A stretch of 64,000 bases of DNA from Aulosira sp. ZfuVER01 (lineage in GTDB: Bacteria > Cyanobacteriota > Cyanobacteriia > Cyanobacteriales > Nostocaceae): the NCBI GenBank assembly GCA_034530615.2, contig JAVRCV020000056.1:1-64000 (forward strand), in the 5' to 3' direction. This document shows positions 18,514 through 41,471 of this stretch, piece by piece. The position numbers were made by a program, and so were the translations under genes. Numbering within the stretch: the first letter of the stretch is position 1; each line of letters opens with the position of its first letter. A model generated the notes under the pieces. That model worked only from the letters and a program-made list of their open reading frames with translations, did not search any database and had not been told where the DNA came from.

Positions 18514-18882
18514 ATGTTAAGGAAATCCATCCTTATATGTGACGATCTTGTGGATAACTGTATTATCCTTCAAGTAATTTTAGAAATGGAAGGATATACA
18601 GTTGAGTGTGTAACCTCTGGTATAGAAGCCATCAATCAAATTAAATTAAATAAACCCGATTTGCTATTGCTAGATGTAATGATGCCGGGATTGAATGGTT
18701 TTGAAGTAGTTAAACTGCTCCGGCAAGATCAACATTTGCAAACTCTACCTATTTTGCTGATTACAGCATATAAACAAATGATTGTCCCGAAGTTAACTCA
18801 CATAAAAGTTAATAAAGTTCTCCACAAACCTGTGAATAGTGACGACTTGGTTGAAACAGTTCATGAGGTTCTACAAGCTTAG
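18514..18882 (+). CDS. Single-domain response regulator
   Basis: ILICDD, PDLLLLDVMMPGLNGF, KP motif. Confidence 0.85.
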   Translation: MLRKSILICDDLVDNCIILQVILEMEGYTVECVTSGIEAINQIKLNKPDLLLLDVMMPGLNGFEVVKLLRQDQHLQTLPILLITAYKQMIVPKLTHIKVNKVLHKPVNSDDLVETVHEVLQA

Positions 18883-18972: not shown

Positions 18973-20334
18973 TCATGCTAACCGTTCTGCTACAGTGCGA
19001 TCGCTAGAAAATAGAGAAAGAAAATTATTATTTGTGCGTTTGCGTCCCCGTTTCATTTCTTTTTTGATTTCATCGATGTAAGGGCAAAAATCTACCTGCA
19101 TTGTGTGTCGTTTGGAATTGACATACTGTTTTTGTGTCAGTCGCCGTTCTTTCTCTATATGGCGCAACATTTCTGCTTTGCTTGGTAAACTGACGTTTCC
19201 AGTAATCACTTCAGCAATCCACTTAGATTGCCATTCGGCTAAAGGCATAATTGCACCTATGGGTTGCAACAAACCAATAAAGTAAAGATTGGGATGTTCT
19301 GGGTGTACAACTCGCTTGTACAGGGGAAATTCATTATCTTGGGGATTAATAAACTCTTTGTCAAAAAACGGAAAAGCAATTTTATAACCCGTACCGTAAA
19401 TAATGATATCTATTGGCAGTTCTGTACCATCTTCAAAACGCACGCGATCGCCTGCGAGTTCTTTGATGTTTGGTTTGATTTTTACCCTACCGTAGCCCAC
19501 AAAATTCAGTAATTCTGAGGAGATTGTTGGATGTTCGCTTAAGAATTTATGGGTGGGATTGGGGAAACCATAAGCTGATTGCGGGCCGCGCGCTAGATAT
19601 AACAGGATTTGACCATATAATCTTCGTAAGGCTAATGGCAACGCAAAAAACAAAGGTGTGAGGTAACTATCAAGAGTTCTACCTAAAATGTACTTTGGTA
19701 AAACATAGGCACTGCGACGAGTAGAAAGATAAGTTTGATTTGCCACTCGTGAAGTCTCACAAGCGATATCACAAGCTGAATTACCAACACCTACAACTAG
19801 AACATTTTTGTCATCCATCCCTTCTGGAGTTTTATAGTCGTGGGTGTGCATTGTCTTTCCCGTAAATTCTCCCGGGAATTTAGGCAAATTTGGACACCAG
19901 TGATGGCCGTTAGCCACAATTACTGCACCATAGCGCTGCGTTCGTTCCCCGTTAGCGTTTTTGATAGTGACATCATAAGTACCATCGCCAACTGGCGCGA
20001 CACGACAGACTTGCGTTTTGAAAGTGATTTTGTCTCGAAACCCAAAATGGTCAACATAAGACTCAAAATATTTGAGAACCTGGTTATGATTGGCATACTG
20101 CGGGTAGTCCTCCGGCATGGGAAAATCAGAGTAGGCCATCTGCCCCTTAGATGAATTGATATGCAAGGATTTATAAGCTGAAGACATCCCGTTATCATTC
20201 ATGTAGCGCCAATTACCACCAATCCCAGAACCTTTTTCAAAGCAGTCAAAGGCTATGCCGCGCTCGTGTAAGATTTTAGCAGCAGCAATTCCGGATGAAC
20301 CAGCACCGATAATACAAACGCGATCAAGAATCAT
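18973..20334 (-). CDS. Class B flavin-containing monooxygenase (FMO-like)
   Basis: IIGAGSSG, FTGKTMHTHDYK (FxGxxxHxxxY), VVGVGNSA. Confidence 0.9.
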   Translation of the reverse strand: MILDRVCIIGAGSSGIAAAKILHERGIAFDCFEKGSGIGGNWRYMNDNGMSSAYKSLHINSSKGQMAYSDFPMPEDYPQYANHNQVLKYFESYVDHFGFRDKITFKTQVCRVAPVGDGTYDVTIKNANGERTQRYGAVIVANGHHWCPNLPKFPGEFTGKTMHTHDYKTPEGMDDKNVLVVGVGNSACDIACETSRVANQTYLSTRRSAYVLPKYILGRTLDSYLTPLFFALPLALRRLYGQILLYLARGPQSAYGFPNPTHKFLSEHPTISSELLNFVGYGRVKIKPNIKELAGDRVRFEDGTELPIDIIIYGTGYKIAFPFFDKEFINPQDNEFPLYKRVVHPEHPNLYFIGLLQPIGAIMPLAEWQSKWIAEVITGNVSLPSKAEMLRHIEKERRLTQKQYVNSKRHTMQVDFCPYIDEIKKEMKRGRKRTNNNFLSLFSSDRTVAERLA

Positions 20335-20434: not shown

Positions 20435-21310
20435 TTATTGCTCAGAAATGCATAGCTTCTTTTCTATTATCCAACTTGTCAAAAGATTTTGGTAAGCTAG
20501 CGATCGCTCGGCAAAAAATAGATGCCCCATGCCCTGCAATACAATTAGTTCAGCGTTAGGAATCTGGCTAGTAAGAAATTTTGCGTGTGCAAGAAGGATA
20601 ATTGGATCGCGATCGCCACTCAAAATCAGTGTAGGTGCTTGAATTTTGGGTAAGACATGGCTAATATCCATGTCTGCAAACCACTCAAACAAGTCAACAA
20701 TATTGTTGAGATTGTGTTTGACGGCATCTGGATACACTGCTTCTACTGTTGTTTGTAGAGTAGGTGCATTCCAATAAGCTGCGCGATCGCCTGCGTTAAA
20801 ACTACACGCCAACTTGTAGCCAGCTTGATTGAGCATCAACGCTTTGCAGAGAATTTTACAAAGGAATTTACCAATTACACTATTTTGAGTTAGCCTCTGT
20901 AACCATCCCAATAAACCGTGCCATTGTCCTTGAGAAAAACCAGAAATGCAGAAAACACCTTTTATTTGTTCGGGAAAATTAGCCGCGAGGTTTAAAGCAG
21001 CAAACCCACCTGTTGAATAACCAACTAAAGCCACTGGTTGCTTACCTACCAATTTGTGAATTGCACTCATCAGGATATCGGCTAGCATATCTGCTGTTAA
21101 TAACTCAGGTTGATAGGAGTCGGGATAATGGCCAGGCAAACTGAGGGAATACCAAGGAAGATGTTCTCTAACGAGGGGTGGTAAGTTTGCTATCCAAAAA
21201 TTAGCAGACAGCGTTATTCCATGCAGAAAAATAATTGGTATTCCTGGTTTATTTTGATTTGCACCAAGTGATATTAATTGATGTTCGCCAACTTCAATGT
21301 ACTGTGACAT
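20435..21310 (-). CDS. Alpha/beta hydrolase (possible ACP thioesterase)
   Basis: FLHG, GYSTGG nucleophile elbow, GDRDP, GMGH. Confidence 0.85.
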   Translation of the reverse strand: MSQYIEVGEHQLISLGANQNKPGIPIIFLHGITLSANFWIANLPPLVREHLPWYSLSLPGHYPDSYQPELLTADMLADILMSAIHKLVGKQPVALVGYSTGGFAALNLAANFPEQIKGVFCISGFSQGQWHGLLGWLQRLTQNSVIGKFLCKILCKALMLNQAGYKLACSFNAGDRAAYWNAPTLQTTVEAVYPDAVKHNLNNIVDLFEWFADMDISHVLPKIQAPTLILSGDRDPIILLAHAKFLTSQIPNAELIVLQGMGHLFFAERSLAYQNLLTSWIIEKKLCISEQ

Positions 21311-21767
21311 GAGAAGTAACTAATTCTTTTTCTGGCTGTATCTTACTTACACGCTGCCAAATTAAGCTACCAACAATCTCAATACCATTGACAAGCATAG
21401 GAGGTGTACTCAAAGTAAGTTGTTCGCCATTTAATTGTACAAACCGGACTTGATTTACACCTACCCAGTTTTGGAAAAAACTCACTTCCACATGATGAAT
21501 AACTCGTTCACCTTGAATTTCATAAGTTCCACAATAAGAAACATAACTGTCAGTCGCAGCCACTTTTTCTTCCACAGTACCCGCTGCAATATCTCCGGCT
21601 TGAAATTGCGGACGGTTCGCTTTCATCATTGCTACAGAAACATAGCCATTATCTGTATAAATAATGTAGCCACTGGGGTTATCTCCTAAAGGATAAAAAA
21701 CTTGACCAGTTTCAGTTCTAGTTTCACAGCTAAGAAGTTTCCAAGTACCTACCAGATTATTTTGCAT
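21294..21767 (-). CDS. Lipocalin-like domain protein
   Basis: LVGTWKLLS..PLGDNPSGYIIYTDNGYVS..YVSYCGTY..NWVGVNQVR. Confidence 0.8.
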   Translation of the reverse strand: MQNNLVGTWKLLSCETRTETGQVFYPLGDNPSGYIIYTDNGYVSVAMMKANRPQFQAGDIAAGTVEEKVAATDSYVSYCGTYEIQGERVIHHVEVSFFQNWVGVNQVRFVQLNGEQLTLSTPPMLVNGIEIVGSLIWQRVSKIQPEKELVTSHVTVH

Positions 21768-21822: not shown

Positions 21823-22707
21823 TTAATCAATGCGGCGAAAAGTTAAGCGTAAAAGAAGTAAATCTCCAGTTAAAAAGCCTAGAAGTGCCAGATAAAGATA
21901 ACGTTCGTAGCGATCGAAAACAGTTTTACCAACCAAATTGATGATTTCTGTACGCTTGCTTCTGAAGTTAGTTAACCATGCTTGGAGAGTGCGGACATAA
22001 TCTAGGCGATCGTTGCGAACTGTAATTACTTCAAAAATACCTTCTGCAGCGGCGGTAATTTCTGTGAGTCGCGGAGAATCAGATTCGGGAAATATTTCTT
22101 GATTAGCAAACTGAGCGCCTAAACTTTTTTGTACTTCTTCTGGTTTTCTCTTCCCATAGGCGATAGTTTGAATGGACATCGAACCCCCGGGATTCAACCA
22201 TTCATAACAGCGATTAAAGAAGGTACGATAAACATCAATTTTTTCCTGGCTGGATAATTCTGGTTTGACAAAATGTTCAAAAGCACCAATAGAAATAATG
22301 GCATCAAAAGGCTGTATTGGTGAGTAGTTTAACCAGCTTTCGAGATTAACTTCAATTTGAGGATGCTTGTTAGCAGAAATCCAATTCTTTTGAGCTTCAC
22401 TTAATGTTAGTCCTACAGCTTGCTCAACTCCATGCACATCTACTAAACGTTTGAGTACTGTTCCCCAACCACAACCGATATCTAAAACTCGCTTGGCATT
22501 CTTGGCTTTAGCTTGATTAATATGAAAATCAACTTTTCTAATTTGAGCTAATTCCAGTGCTTCCTCTGGTTCGCCTTCTTCCCAGATAGCACAAGAATAA
22601 ATCATAGTACTATCTAGCCAAAGTTGATAAAAATCATTGCCTACATCGTAATGGTGTTGGATTGCTTGAGGCGAAGCCCCAGGAGTTGCGGTGTTTGCAG
22701 TAGTCAT
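21823..22707 (-). CDS. Cyclopropane-fatty-acyl synthase-family SAM methyltransferase
   Basis: IQHHYDVGNDFYQLWLDSTMIYSCA, VLDIGCGWG, SIGAFEHF, IFP. Confidence 0.9.
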   Translation of the reverse strand: MTTANTATPGASPQAIQHHYDVGNDFYQLWLDSTMIYSCAIWEEGEPEEALELAQIRKVDFHINQAKAKNAKRVLDIGCGWGTVLKRLVDVHGVEQAVGLTLSEAQKNWISANKHPQIEVNLESWLNYSPIQPFDAIISIGAFEHFVKPELSSQEKIDVYRTFFNRCYEWLNPGGSMSIQTIAYGKRKPEEVQKSLGAQFANQEIFPESDSPRLTEITAAAEGIFEVITVRNDRLDYVRTLQAWLTNFRSKRTEIINLVGKTVFDRYERYLYLALLGFLTGDLLLLRLTFRRID

Positions 22708-22749: not shown

Positions 22750-23061
22750 CTAGAGCGCAATTTTAAGTTCTGTTGTGCCTGCTGCTAAACGTTGTGACAA
22801 AACTTCGATACTGGGTAAGTCATATAATAAAGTTGGCGATAAATCCTGTCCGATTAAACTTTCTAAATGGGAAATCAAACTGACTGATGATAATGAATCT
22901 AAACCGTATTCATTAAACCGAGCTTTAATATTAACTTGATGTGGCTCAACTTCTAAAATTTCGGCAATATAAGCAACTATCGATTCTTGAATTACCTCTG
23001 CACTCAGAGTATTTTTTTGAGAGTCTAAGGCATTATTAGTAACAGTACTGGTGAGTTCCAT
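22750..23061 (-). CDS. Acyl carrier protein (JamC-like)
   Basis: FNEYGLDSLSS phosphopantetheine site, LSPTLLYDLPSI; ATG at 23061 (ORF track 23067). Confidence 0.85.
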   Translation of the reverse strand: MELTSTVTNNALDSQKNTLSAEVIQESIVAYIAEILEVEPHQVNIKARFNEYGLDSLSSVSLISHLESLIGQDLSPTLLYDLPSIEVLSQRLAAGTTELKIAL

Positions 23062-23107: not shown

Positions 23108-23142
23108 AGATTAGAGATAAATCGGGGAGAACTAGGGGAGAA
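23108..23142 (-). promoter_or_regulatory. Conserved promoter box copy 1 (upstream of ACP sub-operon)
   Basis: minus strand TTCTCCCCTAGTTCTCCCCGAT-TTATCTC-TAATCT. Confidence 0.8.
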
Positions 23143-23268
23143 GAATACCAGGTGTAGATTTTAGATTTGGATTGCAAGTAATCGCCTTAAAGCTAAAAGC
23201 CCACATAGGTGGGCTAAATGTGAAAAACAACTGTTATGCTCTGCGCAACCGTATAAGAAGTTACATCA

Positions 23269-24282
23269 TTAGTCAAAAGCTTGAGAATTCCATAAACGCC
23301 GCCAAGCTTCTGTAATTGTTAATTGATTATAGTCTTGAGGAAAGTGCTTTTTCAGCAGATCGCTGACTAATGGATAGTAAGAAGGATGCATTGCTGGAAA
23401 TAGATGATGTTCGGTGTGATAAGAGAAATTGTTATGAATCAAATTGAACAAGGGAGGTACTGTTACAGATGTAGTACCTTGCACAGAATTATTTTGCGCT
23501 TTTATAGGATTGAGGAAATGATTCGTCGCTACATAAATGACTTCAATCACTGAAGCAATCAATATAGGTAATATCCCAACAAATAAGTACTTTAACCAGT
23601 TACATTGAACGGCTGAAAAAATTATAGTCTGGATTAAAATGATAATGCCTGTTTCAATAATAATTGAGAATTTTTCTTTGAGAGTATATGGTACTTGATA
23701 AGGAACTATATACAGCTTGCTTTTTGGTGAGATAAAAACAGCTATGAAATTACGCAAGATGTAAAAGACAAAGTGAATATAGGCGAAAGGATTAATGAAT
23801 CTTAGTAGTAATTTGTTTTTCTGCGGATAGAAGATCCAAGTATAAATCCATTTAATACAAGTTTTTTCTGAAGTTAACCATCGCCGATCGGGGTCTTTAA
23901 ATGTTGCTGCATTAGGATGATGCGTTCGATGATGAATATGTATCCACATCGTTAGAGGGATAAAATTTATTCCCCACACTAACACTTCTAGAAAATGTCT
24001 CTGCCAAGATTTTGCCATAACTGAGCCATGACTCAAATCGTGACCAAAAAAAACTAGACCTGGCAAGCAATTTCCTGACAATAAACTTGCAAGTAAAAAT
24101 ATCCAAATATTATTGGAGTAGTGTGTTAAGGTAATTGCTGAGATAAATAGCGAAAAATTAGCCAGAAAATACCAGAGATAACTTGGCTTTTTTTGAAAAG
24201 CTTCTTTAGGTAAAAAAGGACGGATGGTTTGAATATAGTATTGATCTGTATGTGTTAGGGGCTGTTGCTCTGTCGTATTCAT
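23269..24282 (-). CDS. Membrane fatty acid desaturase
   Basis: His boxes HDLSH, HIHHRTHH, HTEHH. Confidence 0.9.
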   Translation of the reverse strand: MNTTEQQPLTHTDQYYIQTIRPFLPKEAFQKKPSYLWYFLANFSLFISAITLTHYSNNIWIFLLASLLSGNCLPGLVFFGHDLSHGSVMAKSWQRHFLEVLVWGINFIPLTMWIHIHHRTHHPNAATFKDPDRRWLTSEKTCIKWIYTWIFYPQKNKLLLRFINPFAYIHFVFYILRNFIAVFISPKSKLYIVPYQVPYTLKEKFSIIIETGIIILIQTIIFSAVQCNWLKYLFVGILPILIASVIEVIYVATNHFLNPIKAQNNSVQGTTSVTVPPLFNLIHNNFSYHTEHHLFPAMHPSYYPLVSDLLKKHFPQDYNQLTITEAWRRLWNSQAFD

Positions 24283-24341
24283 AATTAAATTCTGCTTCGC
24301 TGATTATAGATTTGCTTTTGAAGAGCTAGAACTACACTTAT

Positions 24342-25310
24342 TTATAGCAATCGCACGCTTTTTGATTGCATCATTTCCGGTGTAGGTTGATTCACATCCC
24401 AAACTAAACCTAGACTCTGCAATACCACAATTACCCAATAGCCAATGTCAATTTGCCACCATTGCAACCCAAATTTAGCTGAGTTTTGAAAAGCGTGATG
24501 ATTGTTGTGCCAAGATTCGCCAAAAGTAGGTAAAGCCAGCCAAAGATTATTTGTGCTTTTTTCTTTGGTATCAAAACTACGAGTACCATAAAGATGGCAA
24601 ATTGAGTTAATGCACCAAGTTGTGTGCTGTCCTAAATATAGACGAATAACTCCACCCCACAAAAAACCATGCCAAGCACCAATCCAATTTCCTGTAAGAA
24701 TAAAAGCGACAACCGCCGGAAAAACCAGACCCAAAATCACCCAAACAAAATACAGTTGGTTAAGCTTGCAAATTGTTTTGTCTCGTAGCAGTTCCGGTGC
24801 ATAGTAAAGTGGGTTGGGATAATCGTACTCAACTTTCCACCACAGATGAGCGTGCCAAAATCCGGAAAGCTGATTGCGCCAACCTGTACCGTGTAAATGT
24901 GGAGAATGGGTATCCCCAACCTCATCACTATAGCGATGGTGGTGTCTGTGGTTAGCAACCCAAGAAAGCACAGGGCCTTCCGCACCTGTGGAACCGAGAA
25001 TTACTAGCAGAATCCGAATAATTGGATGTGCTTGAAAAGCACGATGGGTAAAGTAGCGGTGATAGCCAACGGTAATTCCTACAGAGGTGAGAAACCACAT
25101 CCCTAGAAACACTGTGATATCAACTATACCGATTGGCTTGCCCCATAAACAGGCGATCGCTAAAATAAACCCAACAAAAGGTAGAACATCACACAATAAA
25201 AAATGACGCTTTTGCAACAACTTAATGTAGCTGTTGCTCATGGTTTTCTTCTTTAATAAATCAGTAGCACGATTAATTGATGCAGATTCAACGCTAATAC
25301 TGGTTTCCAT
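24342..25310 (-). CDS. JamB-like acyl-ACP desaturase/acetylenase (delta-9 family)
   Basis: HRYFTH, HRHHH, HNNHH boxes; RHFLL and YPNPLYYAPELLRDKTI segments recall JamB. Confidence 0.8.
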   Translation of the reverse strand: METSISVESASINRATDLLKKKTMSNSYIKLLQKRHFLLCDVLPFVGFILAIACLWGKPIGIVDITVFLGMWFLTSVGITVGYHRYFTHRAFQAHPIIRILLVILGSTGAEGPVLSWVANHRHHHRYSDEVGDTHSPHLHGTGWRNQLSGFWHAHLWWKVEYDYPNPLYYAPELLRDKTICKLNQLYFVWVILGLVFPAVVAFILTGNWIGAWHGFLWGGVIRLYLGQHTTWCINSICHLYGTRSFDTKEKSTNNLWLALPTFGESWHNNHHAFQNSAKFGLQWWQIDIGYWVIVVLQSLGLVWDVNQPTPEMMQSKSVRLL

Positions 25311-25350
25311 ATTCCCAACTTTGATAACTGATGCAAGATTTATGCAGAGC

Positions 25351-25434
25351 TAGGGTGTGTTATGCCGTAGGCTAACGCACCATCAAAAATTCAAGCTGCG
25401 TCGGTGCGTTGCGCTGCGCGACAACACACCCTAC
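25351..25434. repeat. Palindromic dispersed repeat (REP/SDR-like); second copy 56168-56244, half copy 39179-39209
   Basis: tagggtgtgttatgccgtaggctaacgcacc...ggtgcgttgcgctgcgcgacaacacaccctac at both loci. Confidence 0.85.
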
Positions 25435-25439
25435 TGCGA

Positions 25440-27206
25440 TTATGCAGATAAAGGATGATTTACACTTGCAACTGGCGCTAAACTTGGCAAAATCTCTAAT
25501 TTCTGAGCTAAAAACTGCTCTCTGCAAGCATAGCGCTGGATTTTACCGCTAGAAGTTTTCGGGAGAGTGGCTGTTTTAATCAACGCTACAGTATGAATCT
25601 GTAACTCATGCTGTTGTAAAACCGCTTGCCGAATTTTCCCTACCACTTCTGCAACGTTGAGATGGCGCAGATATTGTCGCTCAACTTCTTGCACAATTAC
25701 TAGCCGTAGTACATTTTCGCGCTCAATGGTAAAAGCTGCACCAGCGCCAAGTCTGAGGGATGGATGAGCTTGAGCAACTGTTAATTCGATATCGTGGGGA
25801 TAATAGTTGCGTCCCCGAATAATGATTAAATCTTTGATACGTCCTGTAACGAAGAGTTCGCCTTGATGTAAAAAGCCTAAGTCTCCTGTGCGTAAAAATG
25901 GCCCTTGTTGGCTATCTGCCAAGTATGCTTGGAAATATTCTTTTGTAGCTTCGGGATTATTCCAGTATCCTTGAGCGACACTAGCACCTGACACCCAAAT
26001 TTCTCCGACTTCATTGGGCGAACATGGAGTTAAAGTTTCTGGATTGACAATGACAACTTGCAGATTTGCTAAACTTTGCCCACAACTCACAAGATTTTGG
26101 CTATCAAGATGATTATCGCTAGGAATCACTTGATGCTGTTTCAAAGCTTTTTCCGCTACCGTTTCCACAATGGGTAAAGCGGCTTTATCTCCCCCAGCAA
26201 TAATCAGCGTAGTTTCTGCCATCCCGTAACAGGGATAAAACGCTTCGCGACGGAAACCACAAGGTGTAAATAGAGTAGCAAACTGCTCCATTGTTTCTGC
26301 GCGTACGGGTTCCGCACCATTAAAAGCAACTTCCCAACTGCTCAAATCGAGAGTGGCACGTTGTTCTGGGGTAATTTTACGCACACATAAATCATAAGCA
26401 AAGTTGGGGCCGCCACTGGTAGTTGCTTGGTAACGCGAAATCGCTTGCAACCAGTAAAAAGGCTTTTGTAAGAAAATCATTGGCGGCATGAGGAAGACGG
26501 AAAAACCACCGTAAAGCGGTTGTAAAATACCGCCAATCAAGCCCATGTCATGGTAAGCAGGTAGCCAAATAACACCCCGACTCTCTGGAGAATGCTGAAA
26601 CGATTGATAAATTAAAGAGGAATTGTGCAGTAAATTAGCGTGGCTGATCGTCACACCTTTTGGTGTGGAGGTGGAGCCAGAAGTGTACTGTAAGAAGGCG
26701 AGGGTATCACTACTAACTTCCACTCGTCGCCAATCTTGCGCCCAATTGTTATCTAGGTTATCGGTAGCTTGCCATTGTAGCGATCGCAAATCCGCAAACT
26801 CTTGTAACTGCGGCTGAACCAGGGCTAAAACCGCTTTAGTTGTGAGTGCAATCTTAGCTTGAGCATTCGCTGCGATCGCTTGTAGTCGTGAGATAGATTG
26901 ATTGGGGCGCGGAGGATAAGCCGGAACCGCAACTGCACCTGCATACAAACAGCCAAAGAAAGCCGCAGCAAAATCTAATCCTGGTGGATAAAGTAATAAA
27001 ACTCGCTCTTGGTAGGCTTTTTGGCTTTGCAAATATGCTGCGATCGCTTGGGCTTTTTGATGTAATTCCCTATATGTAAAACTGCTATCTTCAGTAATCC
27101 CATCTGCAAGGAAGGTATAAGCTGTTTGCTGCGGCTGATGGCTGGCTCGATACTCCAACAGATCTACCAAAGTAGTCACGCTCGCATCGATTGATGTATG
27201 TCTCAT
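25440..27206 (-). CDS. Fatty acyl-AMP ligase (FAAL)
   Basis: AFLQYTSGSTSTPKG, WLPAYHDMGLIG, YPCYGMAE, LRTGDLG, PKTSSGKIQR. Confidence 0.92.
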   Translation of the reverse strand: MRHTSIDASVTTLVDLLEYRASHQPQQTAYTFLADGITEDSSFTYRELHQKAQAIAAYLQSQKAYQERVLLLYPPGLDFAAAFFGCLYAGAVAVPAYPPRPNQSISRLQAIAANAQAKIALTTKAVLALVQPQLQEFADLRSLQWQATDNLDNNWAQDWRRVEVSSDTLAFLQYTSGSTSTPKGVTISHANLLHNSSLIYQSFQHSPESRGVIWLPAYHDMGLIGGILQPLYGGFSVFLMPPMIFLQKPFYWLQAISRYQATTSGGPNFAYDLCVRKITPEQRATLDLSSWEVAFNGAEPVRAETMEQFATLFTPCGFRREAFYPCYGMAETTLIIAGGDKAALPIVETVAEKALKQHQVIPSDNHLDSQNLVSCGQSLANLQVVIVNPETLTPCSPNEVGEIWVSGASVAQGYWNNPEATKEYFQAYLADSQQGPFLRTGDLGFLHQGELFVTGRIKDLIIIRGRNYYPHDIELTVAQAHPSLRLGAGAAFTIERENVLRLVIVQEVERQYLRHLNVAEVVGKIRQAVLQQHELQIHTVALIKTATLPKTSSGKIQRYACREQFLAQKLEILPSLAPVASVNHPLSA

Positions 27207-27943
27207 TTGACGCCTACCAATTCAGGTTTAGCAGTAATTTTCTCACCTTGCCACTTAATAGCAGCTTCCAGTTCTGAACCTAAGTAGGGACGAATATTTA
27301 ATTCAGCCCGAATTTCTTCTAAAGGTTTTTCCCATAATGTATTCCAAGGAACGCCAAACAGAGGTTGTGCTTGTTGTCCCATAATCCAGCCGCGCACAAA
27401 AGCTTCCATGTGCTGACTGCACAAATCCATATCTTCAATCGCAGTTTTGAGGAAATTTTTCGCCAGTAACACCACCCAAAAACGAGCAGGATAAAACTGA
27501 GTCAAAGAAAATGTCTCTACTTGAATTTCTCCAGCTTTGTCTGTATTGCTACCAGTAACCACGTGCCAGATATCATGCGTTTCCATCACATAATTGAACA
27601 AATATCTATAGGTATCTGATGTATGTTCGCGCACTGGCGGCGGAGTTAATCTGTTTCTCAGCATGTGATCGGCGTAAATATAGCCAAAGGTGTTGGTAGG
27701 TAATTGATGGAGTTGCTGTAAATCAATCTTACCCAGGAGCTTTTTTTCAGCTAGGGCTATTCTTCCCCGTTCCGTGCGAGAGAGAAACTGCACAATTTGA
27801 TTGAGACTCTTGGGATCGATTGCTGCATCAGATAAATTGCCACCTGCGCCAAAGGAACCGTAAGGTAGCTGGACAATGCGCATGAAGCGATAGGCGAATA
27901 TCAGCTTTTTTAGCTCTTTTTTGAGATTTTGTAGAATTTGCAT
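27203..27943 (-). CDS. Coq4-family protein
   Basis: LPTNTFGYIYA, ETHDIWHVVTG..GE (HDxxH-x-E metal motif); 4-bp overlap with FAAL. Confidence 0.8.
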   Translation of the reverse strand: MQILQNLKKELKKLIFAYRFMRIVQLPYGSFGAGGNLSDAAIDPKSLNQIVQFLSRTERGRIALAEKKLLGKIDLQQLHQLPTNTFGYIYADHMLRNRLTPPPVREHTSDTYRYLFNYVMETHDIWHVVTGSNTDKAGEIQVETFSLTQFYPARFWVVLLAKNFLKTAIEDMDLCSQHMEAFVRGWIMGQQAQPLFGVPWNTLWEKPLEEIRAELNIRPYLGSELEAAIKWQGEKITAKPELVGVK

Positions 27944-27976
27944 TTGATTGATCTCCCAGCGATGCTTGTGTTTTTT

Positions 27977-28011
27977 AAGTTAAAGAGCGATCGGGGAGAA
28001 CTAGGGGAGAA
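27977..28011 (-). promoter_or_regulatory. Conserved promoter box copy 2 (upstream of coq4-FAAL operon)
   Basis: minus strand TTCTCCCCTAGTTCTCCCCGAT-CGCTCTT-TAACTT. Confidence 0.8.
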
Positions 28012-28065
28012 ATGAGAATCAGATGAGAAGAAGATGAGAGAGTTAAGATTGTAGGAGCACTTCAG

Positions 28066-28094
28066 ATCCCCGACTTCTTGAAGAAGTCGGGGAT
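28066..28094. repeat. Perfect 14-bp inverted repeat (dispersed palindrome or terminator)
   Basis: atccccgacttctt-g-aagaagtcggggat. Confidence 0.75.
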
Positions 28095-28122
28095 ATAGGC
28101 AACCATTCTTGCTTAAGTTATA

Positions 28123-28515
28123 TCAACTCTCTATTTCGCTATAAGCCCAACCCAATACTTCACTGATTTGCCCTGCCAGTTTTAAAGGACGAAAAGGCTT
28201 GGCAAATATAGCGGCTACATCTAATCCAGTAAAGCAGTCTTGATCTGAATCTTGAACTTTGGCAGTGAGTAAAATTACTGGAATTTGCTGAGTAACAGGG
28301 TTAGCCTTTAATTTTTGCAAGGTGGCACGCCCATCCATATCAGGCATCATCATATCTAGCAGGATGACATCAACTTGTGAGTTGGCAGCTATATTCAACG
28401 CTTCCCGTCCAGAACAAGCCGTCAACACATTCCAACCAGCACCCAATTCTAATCCCAATTTAGCGATCGCCTGCACATCTTCTTCATCATCAACAATCAA
28501 GATATTTCTGCTCAT
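28123..28515 (-). CDS. Single-domain response regulator (RcaF/CheY-like)
   Basis: MSRNILIVDD..ILLDMMMPDMDG..AKPF; the longer 28581 start overlaps the promoter box. Confidence 0.85.
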   Translation of the reverse strand: MSRNILIVDDEEDVQAIAKLGLELGAGWNVLTACSGREALNIAANSQVDVILLDMMMPDMDGRATLQKLKANPVTQQIPVILLTAKVQDSDQDCFTGLDVAAIFAKPFRPLKLAGQISEVLGWAYSEIES

Positions 28516-28567
28516 GGTGCCATCCTTGCATGATATGTGATGCTGACTAGCTTGATTACCTGGAGCT

Positions 28568-28602
28568 ATTCTAAAATGCAATCGGGGAGAAGTGGGGGAG
28601 AT
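28568..28602 (-). promoter_or_regulatory. Conserved promoter box copy 3 (upstream of single-REC gene)
   Basis: minus strand ATCTCCCCCACTTCTCCCCGAT-TGCATTT-TAGAAT. Confidence 0.8.
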
Positions 28603-28620
28603 TGAAGCAGCGATTAGTTG

Positions 28621-30150
28621 CTAATTAGAGACAGCTAAAGGTAAAAGTACATAAAAGGTGCTACCTTCCCCTAAAACGCTTTGAACCCAGATTTTACCGT
28701 TATGTTGCTGCACAATATTCCGGCAAATCGCCAGTCCTAAACCTGTTCCGCCTTTGTTGCGAGAATCAGATGCATCTACCTGCTGAAAGCGCTCAAAGAT
28801 AATTTGTAATTTATCTTCAGGAATTCCTCGCCCTTCATCTCGAATAGTAATCAACAGGTAGCTGGGTGTATCTTTTTGAGACTCAACACCTTGATTTTCT
28901 GAAAGTGTCGCACCGATCCAAACAGTATCCCCTGGTTCCGAAAACTTAATCGCATTGCTGAGTAAGTTAGTCAAGGTTTGCAAAAGGCGATCGGAATCTG
29001 CCCAAAGTTCAACTGCTAAAGGATTAACAATTAGTTTGACTTGGAGTTTATCTGCCATTGCTTGCATGGCTTCTGTTGCTGTAATCAGCAGTTCAGCAGC
29101 GTTGCACTTGCCCATACGCATGAAGATTTTGCCCGATTTCATCCGTTCTAAATCGAGAATATCGTTCACCAAACGAATTAGACGTTCCGTGTTATTGGTA
29201 GCAATGCTCAAAACTTTTTGTCCCTGTGCAGTTAAAGTTCCTAGTTGTCCTGCACCCAATAAATCTAATGCTCCCATTGTTGAAGTTAAAGGTGTACGTA
29301 ACTCATGACTGACTAAAGAAATAAACTCGTTTTCTAGGCGTTTGCGTTCGGTGATGTCATTGGCAATTAATAAAGCGCATGGTACTCCCGCTAGATCAAT
29401 TAATTCGATAGAAAGTAAGATGGTTTTGATTTCGGCAGATTTGGTAGAAAATTCAAATTCCAGATTGTACAGTGAACCACTATCAGGTAAACGTTGAATT
29501 GTTTGGGCGATCGCTGCTGTATTTTTACCTAAATCGAGTTCTGCAACTGTATGTCCAATTACCTCTTCTAAACAATAGCCACTCATTTTTAAGAAGCTGG
29601 GATTGACATCAAGAACCCGCGCTTCCGAAATTGTGGCGATCACGATCGGGTTAGGACTAGAACGAAAAACTTTAGCAAACTTCTCTTCGGCTTTAGCGCG
29701 CTCTCTTATTTCTTGCTGTAACTGCTGATTTTGCGCTTGGAGTTGCTTTTGGAGTTGGCGAATCGTCAAGTGATTTTCAATTCTGGCTAAAACTTCTTCT
29801 AGTTGAAAAGGCTTAGTAATATAGTCAACCCCGCCAACTGCAAACGCCTTCACCTTATCCAACACATCACCCAAAGCGCTGATAAAAATTACCGGAATCT
29901 CACAAGTGCGATCGCTTGTCTTTAATTGTTGACAAACTTCATAACCATTCATCTCTGGCATATTCACATCTAGCAAAATCAAATCAGGAGGAACTGCATT
30001 TGCTCCCCGCAACCCTGTAGAACCTTTAGTCACGCTGCGAACTTTATATCCTTGTTCGGTCAGCATCGCAGATAAAAGATTTAGATTTTCCGGTGTATCA
30101 TCAATTACCAATATGTCTGCTTTCGGAGAGTTGGATAATTGTTTGGGCAT
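28621..30150 (-). CDS. Hybrid histidine kinase REC-PAS-HisKA-HATPase
   Basis: ILVIDD..DVNMP; VSHELRTPL; NLLSNAIKF; GGTGLGLAIC. Confidence 0.92.
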   Translation of the reverse strand: MPKQLSNSPKADILVIDDTPENLNLLSAMLTEQGYKVRSVTKGSTGLRGANAVPPDLILLDVNMPEMNGYEVCQQLKTSDRTCEIPVIFISALGDVLDKVKAFAVGGVDYITKPFQLEEVLARIENHLTIRQLQKQLQAQNQQLQQEIRERAKAEEKFAKVFRSSPNPIVIATISEARVLDVNPSFLKMSGYCLEEVIGHTVAELDLGKNTAAIAQTIQRLPDSGSLYNLEFEFSTKSAEIKTILLSIELIDLAGVPCALLIANDITERKRLENEFISLVSHELRTPLTSTMGALDLLGAGQLGTLTAQGQKVLSIATNNTERLIRLVNDILDLERMKSGKIFMRMGKCNAAELLITATEAMQAMADKLQVKLIVNPLAVELWADSDRLLQTLTNLLSNAIKFSEPGDTVWIGATLSENQGVESQKDTPSYLLITIRDEGRGIPEDKLQIIFERFQQVDASDSRNKGGTGLGLAICRNIVQQHNGKIWVQSVLGEGSTFYVLLPLAVSN

Positions 30151-30341
30151 CGCAATCTTAGCTTGAGCCAGAATCGGCTACGTAATTGTGAATAAAAATT
30201 CTAACGTTAATTTCTTAGCTTAATAATCCTTTATAAAAACTTCTTCATAGCTTTATCGTAAATAAAAGGGTTTAAGACCCCTACTTCGATACGTAGCATC
30301 AGTTTCAGTCGGGGTTTAAATCCCCGTCTGAAAATATCTTT

Positions 30342-30380
30342 AATTTTGAATTTTGAATTTTGAATTTTGAATTTTGAATT
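30342..30380. repeat. Heptamer tandem repeat (AATTTTG x5)
   Basis: Read directly; similar tract at 39555-39579. Confidence 0.9.
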
Positions 30381-30386
30381 GTTAAT

Positions 30387-30421
30387 GTCTCCCCCAGTTC
30401 TCCCCGATTGTTTTTTATTTT
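30387..30421 (+). promoter_or_regulatory. Conserved promoter box copy 4
   Basis: GTCTCCCCCAGTTCTCCCCGAT-TGTTTTT-TATTTT upstream of 30461. Confidence 0.75.
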
Positions 30422-30460
30422 GAAAACATCAAGCCAAAAGTTTAATTCCTGACTAATAAT

Positions 30461-31006
30461 ATGACAAATCAACAAATATCTTCTTTACCAAAAACCGCCC
30501 GTCTTTTTGCTGCTTTGGGTTTAACTCTCAGTGCTAGCCTTTTTGTTTACCCTAGTACCAGTCAAGCAGGTAAAAATGGTGGGGCGATACCTGCTGAACT
30601 CCAAGGTGAGTGGCTTTACGGTCGAATTTCTTCTATCCAATACCAAGACCAAATTACAGGACAGTCAGCAGCACCGAATGGTTCGAGCGATCGCTTCCTA
30701 GTCGCAGCTAACGGTAGCTACCAGCGACAAAGGTTAATTCAAATCAACACCTACAACTGTGCGTCTAACCTCTTCATACAAGAGAAAGGTAAAGTTAGCG
30801 CTGACGATCGACAACTCACCTTCCAACCGACTGAAAGCTCATCTAAAGGGCAAATCTGCAATACTGGTCGCACTTACTCTGGAAAGAACACAGCCAAGCC
30901 TGAAACCTACGCTTGGTCAATCTCTAAAAACGAATACGGACAAGAAGTCCTCTTGCTTCAGACTACCGATGGTCAGGGTCAAGCTCATTATGGACGACCT
31001 CAGTAG
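30461..31006 (+). CDS. Secreted beta-rich hypothetical protein (lipocalin-like fold possible)
   Basis: Signal peptide ending SQA; IPAELQGEW motif; two Cys. Confidence 0.7.
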   Translation: MTNQQISSLPKTARLFAALGLTLSASLFVYPSTSQAGKNGGAIPAELQGEWLYGRISSIQYQDQITGQSAAPNGSSDRFLVAANGSYQRQRLIQINTYNCASNLFIQEKGKVSADDRQLTFQPTESSSKGQICNTGRTYSGKNTAKPETYAWSISKNEYGQEVLLLQTTDGQGQAHYGRPQ

Positions 31007-31101
31007 CTCAGTCACACAATTTTGGATTTATTCCGAGATAAATTTGCTTTCTCTAAGCTTGTTTAAATTTTTAAATCTAAAATTCGCTAGCAATTAGATT
31101 T

Positions 31102-31136
31102 TTCTCCCCTAGTTCTCCCCGATTGTTTCTTAATCT
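31102..31136 (+). promoter_or_regulatory. Conserved promoter box copy 5
   Basis: TTCTCCCCTAGTTCTCCCCGAT-TGTTTCT-TAATCT upstream of 31163. Confidence 0.8.
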
Positions 31137-31162: not shown

Positions 31163-31645
31163 ATGATTCACCATATTTCTTTTGCTGTTAACAACCCTCA
31201 ACACGTTGCCCAAGTTTTGGCAGAAATTTTAAAAGCAGAAGCTGTTCCATTTCCTCCTCACCCAGGTAGCTATATGGTTATACCTTTTGATGAACATGGT
31301 ACAGCCATTGAACTTTATCCTTTAGGTACTCAATTAGAACCTGGTGAAGGTGATGGACAATGTGCATTTGTACAAAATTCTATTTCTCCTAAGTTCGTAG
31401 ATATTCATGCAGCTATTTCTGTACCTGCTAGTCAAGAAGAAATTCAAAAAATTGGTGCGCGTGAAGGTTGGCGTGTTGTACGCTGTACCCGTGAAACTTT
31501 TTTTGATGTCATTGAGTTCTGGGTAGAAAACAGACTTATGATCGAACTGCTAACACCAGAAATGGCAACTCAATACGTAAAATTTACAACTCACCCAGAA
31601 ACTCGAAAAATATTTACGGCAGAACCTGCTTTAGCCACAGCATAA
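31163..31645 (+). CDS. VOC/glyoxalase-like hypothetical protein
   Basis: MIHHISFAV, GTAIELYP, HAAISV, VIEFWVENRLMIELL pattern. Confidence 0.65.
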   Translation: MIHHISFAVNNPQHVAQVLAEILKAEAVPFPPHPGSYMVIPFDEHGTAIELYPLGTQLEPGEGDGQCAFVQNSISPKFVDIHAAISVPASQEEIQKIGAREGWRVVRCTRETFFDVIEFWVENRLMIELLTPEMATQYVKFTTHPETRKIFTAEPALATA

Positions 31646-31836: not shown

Positions 31837-34800
31837 TTAGTTAAATAGATGTGATGTCAGTTCGAGAATTTCATCAAAGCAGAAACTCCGGACTAAATTT
31901 AATAATTTTTCTGCTAAGTCAGCATGAGATTGCGGAATTTGCTCAATTAATTGAAAAATTCTCTCACCATCAACTGCAATAGCTGCTTGATGAAGTTCCC
32001 CTATCCATTCAGTGGGCATAATTGTAATTGCAGAATGAATATCTAACATAGAATATTGAACATTCTCTGACTTTTTATCTGTTATATTTTCGCTACTTTC
32101 TTCTGAGAAAAGATAGCTTAAATGTAAATATTCAGCTATCTTTTCAAAAATTATTTGTTCGCGGAATGGTTTGCGAATTAAGTCGTCGCACCCTGCGGCT
32201 AAAATACTTGCTTGTTGTTCTTCAAAAGCACTGGCTGTCAGAGCAATAATCACTGTGTGGGAATTTGTCTCTAAACTTCTCTCCCTAGCTCTAATTTCTT
32301 TAGTGGCATCGTAGCCGTTCATTACAGGCATCCGCATATCCATCCAAATTAACTGAGGTTGCCATTTCTGCCACATAGCGATCGCTTCTTGTCCGTTACT
32401 AGCAGCCTCAACTTCAAAGCCAACACCGCCTAGAAGTTGCATCATTAAATCGCGGTTTTCTTTGCGATCGTCAACTACGAGAATACGGTAAGTTGGTTGG
32501 TCTGCTGCTAGTTTGAGTACGCGCCCCCGACTCAACTTTGGTGTAACTTTTAATGGTGTGGCTAAATTAACTTGAATGTCAAAGCTAAAAGTAGATCCTT
32601 GCCCTAAATTACTGCAAAGGTGAATATCTCCTCCCAACAACCGCACAAACTGTCGGCTAATAGTTAGACCTAGCCCAGTACCCTCCTTGGTTTGAATACC
32701 ACTGCTTGTCTGGACAAACGGCTGAAACAGATTATTCATTTCTGCTGCTGCTATCCCCCGTCCAGTATCCTCAACTTCAAAGATGATGAATTGGGAATGG
32801 GGCATAGATTTGTAGTTATTCTCCTTGTCCCCCTTGTCTCTCTTGCCCCCCTTGTCCCCCGCATCCCCCTCATCCCCCAATCTCGCCCGCAACGTCACTC
32901 CCCCGGTTTGGGTGAACTTGATGGCGTTACCCAACAGGTTGATCAAAACTTGGCGGAGTTTACCTTCATCTGTTTGGATATAACGCGGCAGATCGGCAGC
33001 AATTTCAAACTTGAGGTACAACTGTTTTGTCTGCGCCCGTACCTGAAACATTTCTTGTAATGTTTGCAACATCAGGTAGAGGTCGAAGTCTTCAGGATTG
33101 AAAACGATTTGTCCGGCCTCAATTTTGGACATTTCCAGGACATCGTTAATCAGGTTGAGTAGATGTTCTCCACTACGGTTAATCGTAGCTAAAGATTCAC
33201 GCTGGTTTGAGTTGAGACTAGCGTCTCGCTCCATCAACTGAGAAAAACCTAAGATGGCATTGAGAGGAGTGCGGAGTTCGTGGCTCATGTTAGCCAAGAA
33301 AGCACTTTTGGCACGGTTGGCAGTTTCGGCGGCTTCTTTTGCTACTCTCAAGGCTGCTTCTGCTTGATGTCTAGCCCTACCGATCGCAATGATTTCACCT
33401 ACCAATTTCAGGAGATTCATCTCCTGTTGATTCCAGTTTTTCGTATAGTGAATAGTATCTGCGGCAATAAACCCGACTACTTTACCAGAATGAATCATTG
33501 GTACACCTAATGCAGATTTAATTGACTGATTTTCAAAGAATTCTTTCTCAGGTGTATCGGGTGGTAAATCGGCTATGCATGGCAAAACAGAATTTTGCCC
33601 TATAAGTATTGGTGCAAGTAAAGGGAACATTTCTAAATTGCCCCTTCTGGCATTACCGCTTAATGGTGGAATATCAGCAGCACGCCATTCATGGACTATG
33701 TAGACTTCCCTTGGCTGATCGGATAACTCAAAAATCGAGCAGCGTTCAGCATTAATAAATTGAGCGATCGCCTGAAGTGTAAAATTAATTGCTGTGTCTA
33801 TATCTTGGTCGATAAATTGGCGGGAAATACTGCTGAGTATACTTTCTAGTTGAGCGCGACTTTGCAAAGCTTGCTCTACTTGCTTGCGATCGCTGATATC
33901 TGTAAAGACAGAATCTAAACAAGATTCTTCGGCGTTGAGGCGCAGTGATAATAGTACCCAAACCACAGAGCCATCGCCACGCCGTAGTGCTAATTCAAAA
34001 TTGCGAACTTCGCCAGATGCTGCTAACTCTGCTAACATCCGGGCGCGATCGTTGGGATTAACATACAATTCAGTTGTGAAATACCTGCCAATCAAGTCAC
34101 TAGCAGCAGCGAAACCTAAGATATCAGCACCGCGTTGATTTGCATCGACAATTAATCCATCTTGTTGACGAGTGCGGAAAATCCCTACTTGGGAATTTTC
34201 AAAGATGTTGCGGTATTTCATTTCACTACGACGCAAGGCTTCTTCTGTTTGCTTGCGTTCTGTAATGTCCCGCCCCACACCAGCGATCGCAATTTCACCA
34301 TCAGGAGTGTTAATGGTGGAAGTGTTAAAGCTGAACCATCGCCAGCTATTGTTTTTGTGTCTTAATCGCACCTCAATACCTGTCTGCTTTTCCCCAGCTA
34401 TGGCTTTTTGTATACCTGCGGCGCTAATTGCTAAATCTTCAGGATAAGTAAATTCGACTACAGAATGTCCCTCGATTTCTGGCAGGGTGTAGCCCATAAT
34501 TGGAGTCACATTAGGCGAGTGGTAAGTAAAAATTCCCTCTGGAGAGATGGTAAAAATTAAGTCATTGGCATTCTCTACAATAGTGCGGAACTTGATTTCA
34601 CTTTGTTGCAAAGCTGCTTGGGCGCGTTTACGTTCTGTAGCATCGGTACCAACTGAAAGTATTTCGATTAAGTTGCCTTGCTCGTCTAAAATAGGTTTAT
34701 TTGCCCAAACTATCCAGACGCGATCGCCATTTTTGCACGAGTTTTCATTTTCATTGAATAGGTAGTTTTCTGGGTGCTGGCAAATATCAACCATTAAAGC

Positions 34801-36558
34801 CTGTAAGTCGCGCCCAGAAGTTTCAGTTTCGGGGACAATTGTCCCGACCACATTGCGTCCTATAATCTCTTGGGCATCAAAACCAAAAAGCTTTTGACCG
34901 TAGTCATTTAAGTATATGATGTCACCGTGACTGTCCCAACGCAGAATAATGCAGTTGGCTGTTTGTACCAAATCGCGATACTGGACTTCGCTTTGTCGCA
35001 AAGCTGCTTCTGTGCGTTTGCGATCGCTAATATCTCGGACTATTGCCAAGACGTGTCGTTTGCCATTGTAAATGCAAGTCGTTCCTTTAACTTCCACATC
35101 TATTAAAGTGCCATCTTTGCAGATATCAACAGCTTGTCCATAAAATTGCCCCCCAGCGCGCGTTGTCTCAAGAAACTCATAGAAAACCGGATGTGAATTT
35201 GGGTGAATGTAAACTGATGGATGCAAAGTAATAAATTCTTCGTAAGTATAACCATGCATCTGACAAGCAGCGGGATTAACTTCGGCAACTGTTTCGGTTT
35301 CTATGTCAGTAATAAATAGTCCATCATTAATCGCTTCAAAAATACTGCGATATTGCAACTCACTTTGTCGCAATGCTGCTTCTGTTTTTTGGCGTTGGGT
35401 GACATCACGGAAACTCCACACTCTACCAATAATCTGGTCTTTGATGCGCTGAGGACAGGAGTATCTCTCAAAAACCCTACCATCTTGCAATTCTAAAAAG
35501 TCGTAACTATCTAGCTCTGGCTGGGCGTATAATTCTCGAACTCGCTGCAAAAATCCCTGAGGATCTTTTAACTGGTTTGCCAAATACGCCAGCCGCTTAG
35601 GATGGTCTGGTTCTGTTAAAAGTTCTGGTGGAATTGACCACATTTCTAAGAACTTTTGATTGTAACTGGTGATATTTCCTAAGCTATCAATTGCTAAGAT
35701 ACCGTCTTGAATCGATTCCAAGATCGCGCTTAACAAAGATAAGGAGTTTTCTAAAGCTACTTGGGTAAGTTTGCGATCGCTAACATCACGCCCTAAAACT
35801 ACCAGCGCCTTGCGTCTACCATCTGGGTGAAATACAGGCACTTTAATCATATCCACAATGCTCACTGTACCATCAGGGCGAGGTACAACTTCTTCTACCC
35901 GATTTACAGATCCCTGCTGCCAAGCTTGTTCGTCTGTTTGGTCGCAATTGAGTAAAGTATCGTGATAAAAATCGCTAAATTGCGCTAGTTCGGAATCAGT
36001 TTTTCCTTTGTAATCAACACCATGTATCTCTAAAAATTCCAGGTTAGCTTGATTCGACTCCAGCCATTTTCCTTCGCTGTCCTTTAAACAGATAATATCT
36101 GGTGTCGCGTTAATTAGCGTGCGTAAACGTTCTTCACTCTCTTGGAAGGATTTTTGAGCTTGTTGAGCCAGCGTAATATCCTGAATTACTAGTACAGCAC
36201 AATCATCCTCATTCAGTCCCGCACGACTACCAGAGATTTGCAGCACCAAAGAACGCTTACCTTGATGAAACTCATACTCTGTAGTTTCGTACTTTCCATT
36301 TTGGATCAGCACATCAGGGTAGGAGTTTAAAGCAACAGGTTTTCCTAATTTTAATAAGGGTAGTAACTCACTTAGCTGCCAGCCTGCGATCGCACTTTTG
36401 GGCCGATTCACCAGACACTCAAAGCTAGAATTACACCATTGAACACGTCGGTCTTCCCCAACCCAGACTACAGCATCAGCGATCGCACCTAGCGTTACTT
36501 CCATCTTGGTAAGGGTTGCTTGCAATAGCTTAACCTGCTCTAGCTGTTCAGCGCTCAT
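31837..36558 (-). CDS. Cytoplasmic multi-PAS/GAF hybrid sensor histidine kinase with C-terminal REC
   Basis: About seven PAS/PAC units (DITERK/DISDRK ends), GAF, FLANMSHELRTPLN, GTGLGL, ILVVDD..WMDMRMP; no evident TM helix. Confidence 0.92.
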   Translation of the reverse strand: MSAEQLEQVKLLQATLTKMEVTLGAIADAVVWVGEDRRVQWCNSSFECLVNRPKSAIAGWQLSELLPLLKLGKPVALNSYPDVLIQNGKYETTEYEFHQGKRSLVLQISGSRAGLNEDDCAVLVIQDITLAQQAQKSFQESEERLRTLINATPDIICLKDSEGKWLESNQANLEFLEIHGVDYKGKTDSELAQFSDFYHDTLLNCDQTDEQAWQQGSVNRVEEVVPRPDGTVSIVDMIKVPVFHPDGRRKALVVLGRDVSDRKLTQVALENSLSLLSAILESIQDGILAIDSLGNITSYNQKFLEMWSIPPELLTEPDHPKRLAYLANQLKDPQGFLQRVRELYAQPELDSYDFLELQDGRVFERYSCPQRIKDQIIGRVWSFRDVTQRQKTEAALRQSELQYRSIFEAINDGLFITDIETETVAEVNPAACQMHGYTYEEFITLHPSVYIHPNSHPVFYEFLETTRAGGQFYGQAVDICKDGTLIDVEVKGTTCIYNGKRHVLAIVRDISDRKRTEAALRQSEVQYRDLVQTANCIILRWDSHGDIIYLNDYGQKLFGFDAQEIIGRNVVGTIVPETETSGRDLQALMVDICQHPENYLFNENENSCKNGDRVWIVWANKPILDEQGNLIEILSVGTDATERKRAQAALQQSEIKFRTIVENANDLIFTISPEGIFTYHSPNVTPIMGYTLPEIEGHSVVEFTYPEDLAISAAGIQKAIAGEKQTGIEVRLRHKNNSWRWFSFNTSTINTPDGEIAIAGVGRDITERKQTEEALRRSEMKYRNIFENSQVGIFRTRQQDGLIVDANQRGADILGFAAASDLIGRYFTTELYVNPNDRARMLAELAASGEVRNFELALRRGDGSVVWVLLSLRLNAEESCLDSVFTDISDRKQVEQALQSRAQLESILSSISRQFIDQDIDTAINFTLQAIAQFINAERCSIFELSDQPREVYIVHEWRAADIPPLSGNARRGNLEMFPLLAPILIGQNSVLPCIADLPPDTPEKEFFENQSIKSALGVPMIHSGKVVGFIAADTIHYTKNWNQQEMNLLKLVGEIIAIGRARHQAEAALRVAKEAAETANRAKSAFLANMSHELRTPLNAILGFSQLMERDASLNSNQRESLATINRSGEHLLNLINDVLEMSKIEAGQIVFNPEDFDLYLMLQTLQEMFQVRAQTKQLYLKFEIAADLPRYIQTDEGKLRQVLINLLGNAIKFTQTGGVTLRARLGDEGDAGDKGGKRDKGDKENNYKSMPHSQFIIFEVEDTGRGIAAAEMNNLFQPFVQTSSGIQTKEGTGLGLTISRQFVRLLGGDIHLCSNLGQGSTFSFDIQVNLATPLKVTPKLSRGRVLKLAADQPTYRILVVDDRKENRDLMMQLLGGVGFEVEAASNGQEAIAMWQKWQPQLIWMDMRMPVMNGYDATKEIRARERSLETNSHTVIIALTASAFEEQQASILAAGCDDLIRKPFREQIIFEKIAEYLHLSYLFSEESSENITDKKSENVQYSMLDIHSAITIMPTEWIGELHQAAIAVDGERIFQLIEQIPQSHADLAEKLLNLVRSFCFDEILELTSHLFN

Positions 36559-41446: not shown

Positions 41447-41471
41447 GAATCACATTCACTCGCGACGTGTC

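Follow-up and report, generated by a model that had tools for sequence, protein, structure and literature searches.

A 64-kb stretch of DNA from the cyanobacterium Aulosira sp. ZfuVER01 (contig JAVRCV020000056.1, positions 1 to 64,000; hereafter the window) contains five copies of a short tandem repeat, TCTCCCC-N4-TCTCCCCGAT, and the question raised by this locus is which protein recognizes the repeat and what is controlled through it. In our opinion, this repeat (hereafter the box) is most probably the activator site of the adjacent RcaC-like response regulator encoded at 15890-18235, a reading suggested by comparison of sequences. The copies in the window are the following.

23121-23141, reverse strand: box 1, TCTCCCC-TAGT-TCTCCCC-GAT, with the -10-like TAATCT at 23108-23113; heads the genes of an acyl carrier protein (ACP), a methyltransferase, a lipocalin-like protein, a hydrolase and a monooxygenase.
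27990-28010, reverse strand: box 2, with the -10-like TAACTT at 27977-27982; heads the genes of a Coq4-like protein, a fatty acyl-AMP ligase (FAAL) and two desaturases.
28581-28601, reverse strand: box 3, with the -10-like TAGAAT at 28568-28573; heads the gene of an RcaF-like single receiver.
30388-30408, forward strand: box 4, with the -10-like TATTTT at 30416-30421; heads the gene of a 181-aa protein.
31103-31123, forward strand: box 5, with the -10-like TAATCT at 31131-31136; heads the gene of a 160-aa protein.

The box is a 21-mer, and inclusion of one extra upstream base gives 22 bp, identical in three copies. Each copy is intergenic and aimed at an ATG 39–65 nt beyond it; the contact of box 3 with the open reading frame (ORF) 28123-28581 is only apparent, since the TTG start of the latter was assigned mechanically, whereas orthologues share a start at the ATG at 28515. 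Five exact copies were found in the window against 0.05 expected, none of 100 shuffles reached this number, and a search of the window allowing up to three mismatches gave no other box. Thus, what an earlier note on this DNA had described, namely five copies on the strands listed above, three of them alike over 22 bp, all intergenic and oriented to the downstream gene, each followed after exactly 7 bp by a -10-like hexamer and none elsewhere in the window, was recovered in full by exact search and in the extracted contexts. The genome-wide motif scan proposed there as a check (8.03 Mb, both strands) returned only these five gene-oriented exact copies, no site with one mismatch, five sites with two mismatches, none of them with a -10 at the box spacing, and 42 sites with three. 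With a weight matrix, the five copies scored 40–54 bits and the next best site of the genome 21. Two minor features adjoin the boxes: a run of TTTTGAA heptamers immediately 5' of box 4 (30340-30380) and an inverted repeat (28060-28100) in the interval from box 2 to the receiver gene.

Short C-rich repeats are common in the Aulosira genome, and 6 of 11 matched genomes also had sites in which the spacer differs, for the most part tandem repeats of 11 bp having no -10 at the box spacing, so that the motif might be regarded as a dispersed, non-regulatory repeat resembling the short tandemly repeated repetitive (STRR) sequences or as the remnant of a small mobile element. This explanation has hardly any probability, because five copies in 8 Mb all face a gene 39–65 nt away, the hexamer is kept while the flanks vary, and at least ten unrelated gene families stand behind the box. 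A dispersed repeat of the STRR or HIP (highly iterated palindrome) type was rejected on the number and orientation of the copies.

The arrangement of the box is that of a promoter element. Its direct repeats have an 11-bp period, as in boxes of the OmpR/PhoB type, the gap between the second repeat and TANNNT is fixed at 10 nt, and the box covers the -35 position. No -35 hexamer was found in the window: at 16–18 nt, none of the five copies matches TTGACA at more than 2 of 6 positions, and none has TG before the -10. A generic sigma-70 scan, the yield of which was at chance level (38 promoters found, 39 expected), missed all five predicted box promoters, as would be expected of promoters that have no -35. 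The same geometry was revealed in other organisms when each species, represented by one genome, was scanned for exact matches; this gave 115 stretches, 80 of them with long flanks. They are nearly all cyanobacterial, mostly from Nostocales, with additional records from Coleofasciculaceae, Chroococcales, Limnofasciculus and Myxacorys; a single match in Sphingopyxis (L041) has no -10. Among 143 distinct contexts, 136 were kept, and L028, L029, L030, three contexts in L031 and L041 were dropped owing to other spacers or absence of a -10. TANNNT, which was not part of the search pattern, begins exactly 7 nt past the box in 133 of the 136 sites; it was found at offset 12 in two sites and at offsets 3–6, 8–11 and 13 in none. 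The flanks of the box are not conserved across these sites, and the hexamer is.

Proteins of the OmpR/PhoB group bind head-to-tail to tandem repeats and contact region 4 of the sigma factor near -35, as described in PMC10235972. The layout of the box fits this type of binding, and activation is therefore its most likely role. One of the nearest known counterparts is the pho box of Escherichia coli, in which 7-bp repeats likewise follow in tandem, at a period of 11 bp, over -35 (class II activation). The pho box lies 10 nt from the -10. The code differs (TGTCA there, TCTCCCC here), and so do the regulator, which here is a 781-aa relay protein, and the targets, which here are biosynthetic and secretion genes. 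The same regulator might instead repress from the box, or have a dual role there, and by its presence at -35 keep the genes off until a signal releases it, in line with the overlap of the box with the binding position of sigma region 4 and with the behaviour of RcaC, which, according to PMC5737509, activates some promoters and represses others. However, promoters with neither a usable -35 nor TG before the -10 should be weak unaided, and a spacing constant in 133 of 136 sites is what one would expect of a contact with the polymerase; we consider repression improbable.

The activator reading is carried, first of all, by co-occurrence. The set comprised 221 genomes of the family, that of Aulosira included, and the regulator was called at E ≤ 1e-43 for its winged helix-turn-helix (wHTH) domain. 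The C-type box TCTCCCC was found in 35 genomes, a T-type variant in 26 and the regulator in 52; some form of the box is present in 50 of the 52 genomes with the regulator versus 9 of the 169 without it. All 27 genomes in which wHTH identity is at least 79% have the box. Around more diverged regulators, the variant TCTTCYC-trbt-TCTTCYC-gat-N7-TANNNT is clustered, often before the regulator gene itself or before type I secretion or lanthipeptide genes. Box-bearing genomes outside the family encode a regulator of the Ser type described below in five cases of five (75–87% identity).

The second line of evidence is the pairing of box type with one residue of the recognition helix, Ser198 (codon at 17660-17662) in the window regulator. 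Residues are counted here from the TTG at 18253; counted from the ATG, this is Ser192. The best matches of the wHTH domain among solved structures are PhoB, its closest structural relative, and residue 198 aligns with PhoB V197, which makes a base-specific contact (PMC3264566). In all 31 genomes with Ser198, C boxes predominate; of the 21 with Ala198, 19 have T boxes (TCTTCYC), no box being found in the other two. Beside Ser regulator genes, repeat position 4 is C in 80 cases and T in 2 (14 loci with sites); beside Ala regulator genes, it is T in 96 cases and never C (14 loci with sites, five loci with none). Two genera (g173 and g166) each include Ser and Ala regulators, and within them the type of box goes with that of the regulator. 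Serine would suit cytosine, and alanine the methyl group of thymine. One locus (L021) combines Leu192 and Ser198 with mostly C boxes, so that residue 198 is favoured over residue 192 as the determinant. It may be concluded that the RcaC-like regulator is a well-supported candidate for the binder of the box and that the earlier proposal of an activator site of this protein is backed by both comparisons.

Two other box/regulator combinations were noticed. In genome G271, which has four dispersed sites, TTT replaces GAT at the end of the C-type boxes and the regulator helix is slightly altered (RSKL), possibly a further variant of the code. Triple 11-bp repeats TCT(C/A)CCCGATT coincide with, or lie no more than 5 kb from, a gene of a single-domain OmpR protein of 225–251 aa in the Aulosira genome outside the window (G000:C33:100605) and in L001, L002, L003 and L008; the helix of this protein, EET[IV]K[ST], resembles that of the window regulator, and no -10 stands at the 7-nt spacing. 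These repeats and the single-domain protein are possibly a third, more distant pair.

Several facts weigh against the regulator as the reader of the box. Nine boxed genomes have no orthologue even at 1e-33; most of them are fragmented, but G409 consists of only 30 contigs. Conversely, no box was found in G333 and G579, which have the regulator, and in the window neither the regulator gene nor those of both kinases carry one. Kinship among genomes and sites makes the counts overstate independence. The Ala regulators form one clade (support 100/97), and the pairing of residue and base is therefore a single evolutionary event; the change Q192L falls on nearly the same branch as that at 198. Ser198 is also found in distant paralogues, the RcaC-type protein included, and was rejected as a sufficient code for this reason. 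Finally, the order of phosphotransfer proposed below is taken solely from homology.

The nine genomes agree with recognition of the box by some other factor, such as an alternative sigma factor or another paralogue of the OmpR family, the gene of which is either inherited together with the module or located elsewhere. The Aulosira genome contains about 17 wHTH paralogues besides the regulator, one of them with the similar helix and related 11-bp repeat just mentioned. On the other side, 160 of the 169 regulator-less genomes are boxless though they hold 11–36 candidate paralogues each among those listed, and the box type changes with the regulator helix even within a genus. Another reader is thus an improbable explanation. 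Moreover, the regulator wHTH is the sole DNA-binding domain among the conserved module proteins scanned.

The regulator preferred here is a 781-aa multi-domain relay protein of the RcaC-type architecture REC-wHTH-Hpt-REC-REC with D57, H315 and D561 present, Asn in the middle receiver and an extra degenerate GGDEF domain. Together with a kinase and a single receiver it forms a relay paralogous, as judged from the protein sequences, to RcaE-RcaF-RcaC of type 3 chromatic acclimation, with which it shares the set of a kinase, a single receiver and a REC-wHTH-Hpt-REC regulator. An Rca-type trio is encoded separately on contig C28, and the identities to it are 44% for the kinase, 52% for the receiver and 39% for the regulator. 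The C28 trio is likely the chromatic-acclimation system of this genome, because its kinase has a GAF domain and an L box stands before phycocyanin-like genes; the window regulator is therefore a paralogue of RcaC. Thus, the affinity to RcaC suggested by the earlier note holds, but the protein is not RcaC itself, having a different recognition helix, with the Rca-type cluster and L boxes lying on other contigs.

The L-box consensus is TTGCACA-N4-TTGCACA. An L box of this genome (C6:25967) shares with our box the 7-4-7 layout, the 10-nt gap and TANNNT. Membership of the locus in the RcaC/L-box system was rejected, since the box is TCTCCCC, L boxes occur on C28 and C6 and not here, and the 509-aa kinase has no GAF. 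Unlike RcaE, this kinase bears an N-terminal receiver, and a second, PAS-rich hybrid kinase is added; unlike RcaC, the regulator has the degenerate GGDEF tail, another helix (46% wHTH identity) and targets other than phycobiliproteins. A paralogous box was sought near the other RcaC-like genes of the genome (C55, C52), and none was found.

The genes around the boxes are listed below.

15890-18235, reverse strand: RcaC-like regulator, REC-wHTH-Hpt-pseudoREC-REC-degenerate GGDEF, ATG at 18235 (Pfam, motifs).
18514-18882, forward strand: single receiver, oriented divergently with respect to the regulator and unboxed; at most a tentative member of the module.
18973-20334, reverse strand: flavin monooxygenase (FMO-like).
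20435-21310, reverse strand: alpha/beta hydrolase, a predicted thioesterase (putative role).
21294-21767, reverse strand: lipocalin-like protein.
21823-22707, reverse strand: S-adenosylmethionine-dependent methyltransferase of the CMAS/CFAS family.
22750-23061, reverse strand: ACP with DSL motif.
23269-24282, reverse strand: membrane fatty-acid desaturase, His boxes present.
24342-25310, reverse strand: membrane fatty-acid desaturase, His boxes present.
25440-27206, reverse strand: FAAL.
27203-27943, reverse strand: Coq4-like protein, relative of Alr8543 (PDB 6E12).
28123-28515, reverse strand: RcaF-like single receiver.
28621-30150, reverse strand: REC-PAS-histidine kinase of 509 aa, no GAF, no box of its own.
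30461-31006, forward strand: conserved module protein of 181 aa without a Pfam or NCBIfam family.
31163-31645, forward strand: conserved module protein of 160 aa without a family match.
31837-36558, reverse strand: hybrid kinase with five PAS stretches, GAF, HisKA, HATPase and REC, no membrane helix.

Thus, boxes head both halves of a fatty-acyl pathway, the receiver at 28123-28515 and two family-less proteins. A PDB sequence search with the 160-aa protein gave no match; its appearance is, we presume, VOC/glyoxalase-like. The genes of FAAL, desaturases and methyltransferase are predicted to form a modified-fatty-acid pathway. The desaturase at 23269-24282 is absent from three related loci (L025, L070/L139, L143), and a search of metagenomes with the methyltransferase revealed one locus only. 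By gene content, the cluster can be likened to that of the fischerazoles (PMC13548996), in which FAAL, a free ACP, a desaturase and a CMAS-type enzyme are likewise combined in one cyanobacterial cluster and FshF is described as a CMAS/CFAS-type methyltransferase acting on acyl-ACP. In contrast to it, the fatty-acyl cluster of the window has no polyketide synthase, nonribosomal peptide synthetase or halogenase and adds the Coq4-like, lipocalin-like and FMO proteins.

The following mechanism may be proposed. A cytoplasmic signal would be sensed by the PAS-rich hybrid kinase, a likely sensor by its homology and anatomy, and phosphate would pass from it to the REC-PAS kinase, the RcaF-like receiver, the Hpt domain of the regulator and then the first receiver of the latter. 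The winged helix of the regulator would bind the 7-4-7 repeat head-to-tail over -35 and recruit RNA polymerase as PhoB does. The phosphorylated regulator would switch on the two halves of the fatty-acyl pathway, the two family-less proteins and the relay's own receiver, the last representing putative feedback on the relay. In the pathway, FAAL would load ACP, and the desaturases, CMAS-type methyltransferase, monooxygenase and hydrolase would modify and release the chain. In other cyanobacteria, the same switch would drive lanthipeptide or type I secretion genes.

By rough pattern classes, the genes downstream of the box encode lanthipeptide exporter HlyD (38), cupins (18), the 160-aa protein (13), Nif11 precursors (13), the 181-aa protein (7), Coq4-like proteins (7), ACP (7), peptidase ABC exporters (6), receivers (5) and others; many of these sites are orthologous, so that they do not count as independent. 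On the locus maps, a single relay is combined with either of two main payloads, the one lanthipeptide and the other fatty-acyl. As a control, the Coq4-like family has the box before 7 of 7 orthologues and before none of 18 paralogues (46–52% identity). In the Aulosira genome, the 160-aa protein and the HlyD/ABC exporter also have paralogues not linked to the locus, at which no box was found; the LanM genes are likewise unlinked and unboxed. The complete genome G576 has six boxes at the relay and at a cluster in which the precursors fit the nostolanthin core motif as published, and one more box at another LanM cluster, at a distance of 2.1 Mb; at L077, boxes also precede precursors with this motif. 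Hence, the notion of a local regulon applies to Aulosira, but elsewhere unlinked clusters up to 2.1 Mb away are boxed too. Further records include L040, L047, L081 and L107 (several Nostoc records), where one box stands before the gene of a 990-aa peptidase ABC exporter surrounded by the other genes of an unlinked secretion locus. At L146-L185, short conserved ORFs (63–65 aa) and genes of small RTX-like proteins follow T-type boxes; their products may be secreted peptides that have escaped annotation. The length of the hybrid kinase varies between genomes from about 800 to 1960 aa.

Nostolanthin (nlt, formerly ripp4) is the nearest described system of the lanthipeptide type. According to the preprint (bioRxiv 10.64898/2026.08.14.744816), homologous two-component genes lie beside 57 Nif11-type clusters and contact with Blasia is inducing. 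NltR1/NltR2 of Nostoc punctiforme are homologous kinases located beside Nif11 precursors, LanM and three exporters. None of these neighbours occurs at the Aulosira locus, which does not belong to the nostolanthin type. In the consulted portion of the preprint's main text, two regulatory genes are named, with no mention of a DNA-binding, OmpR- or RcaC-type regulator, binding site or repeat. The family is limited there to lanthipeptide clusters of Nostocales, whereas here the payload is fatty-acyl and the box is found also outside Nostocales. Co-induction of ripp3 and ripp4 by nostoclide and nostovalerolactone was reported by Krumbholz et al. (PMC9324945); the predicted co-regulation of unlinked clusters would fit it if those clusters are boxed.

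A portable switch with interchangeable outputs is well supported by these data. A broader idea, that filamentous cyanobacteria re-purposed a chromatic-acclimation relay as a portable chemical-sensing switch and that in this lineage the fatty-acyl product is its autoinducer in a circuit of the quorum-sensing type, is speculative and rather doubtful. The autoinducer part, read from anatomy only, supposes that a diffusible fatty acid, oxidised and either methylated or cyclopropanated, acts on the cytoplasmic PAS sensors. If true, the same box would couple a self-inducing circuit to host-contact lanthipeptides in other strains.

Searches of the literature for the box string, which covered sources other than subscription journals and preprint supplements, gave no paper describing it; nothing relevant was found on RcaC-like regulators of secondary metabolism, and only the fischerazoles on such FAAL clusters. 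The mechanism is a textbook one, and the literature searched contains nothing on the DNA code, on the clade of the regulator or on a relay with exchangeable payloads. For the cryptic natural-product clusters of cyanobacteria, this analysis supplies a candidate factor, its 21-bp site and a specificity residue, so that activation of cryptic and symbiosis-linked clusters becomes directly testable. The box may serve as a search tag for co-regulated clusters, over-expression of the regulator as a route to waking the fatty-acyl pathway, and the Ser/Ala pair as a test, provided by nature, of how OmpR-family proteins recognize DNA, with one residue and one base changed.

In other parts of the window, baseplate wedge, baseplate J-like and long tail-like genes at 500-12249 represent the end of a cluster of the contractile injection system type, and nitrogenase-related fragments at 39584-44053 are situated between two serine recombinases.

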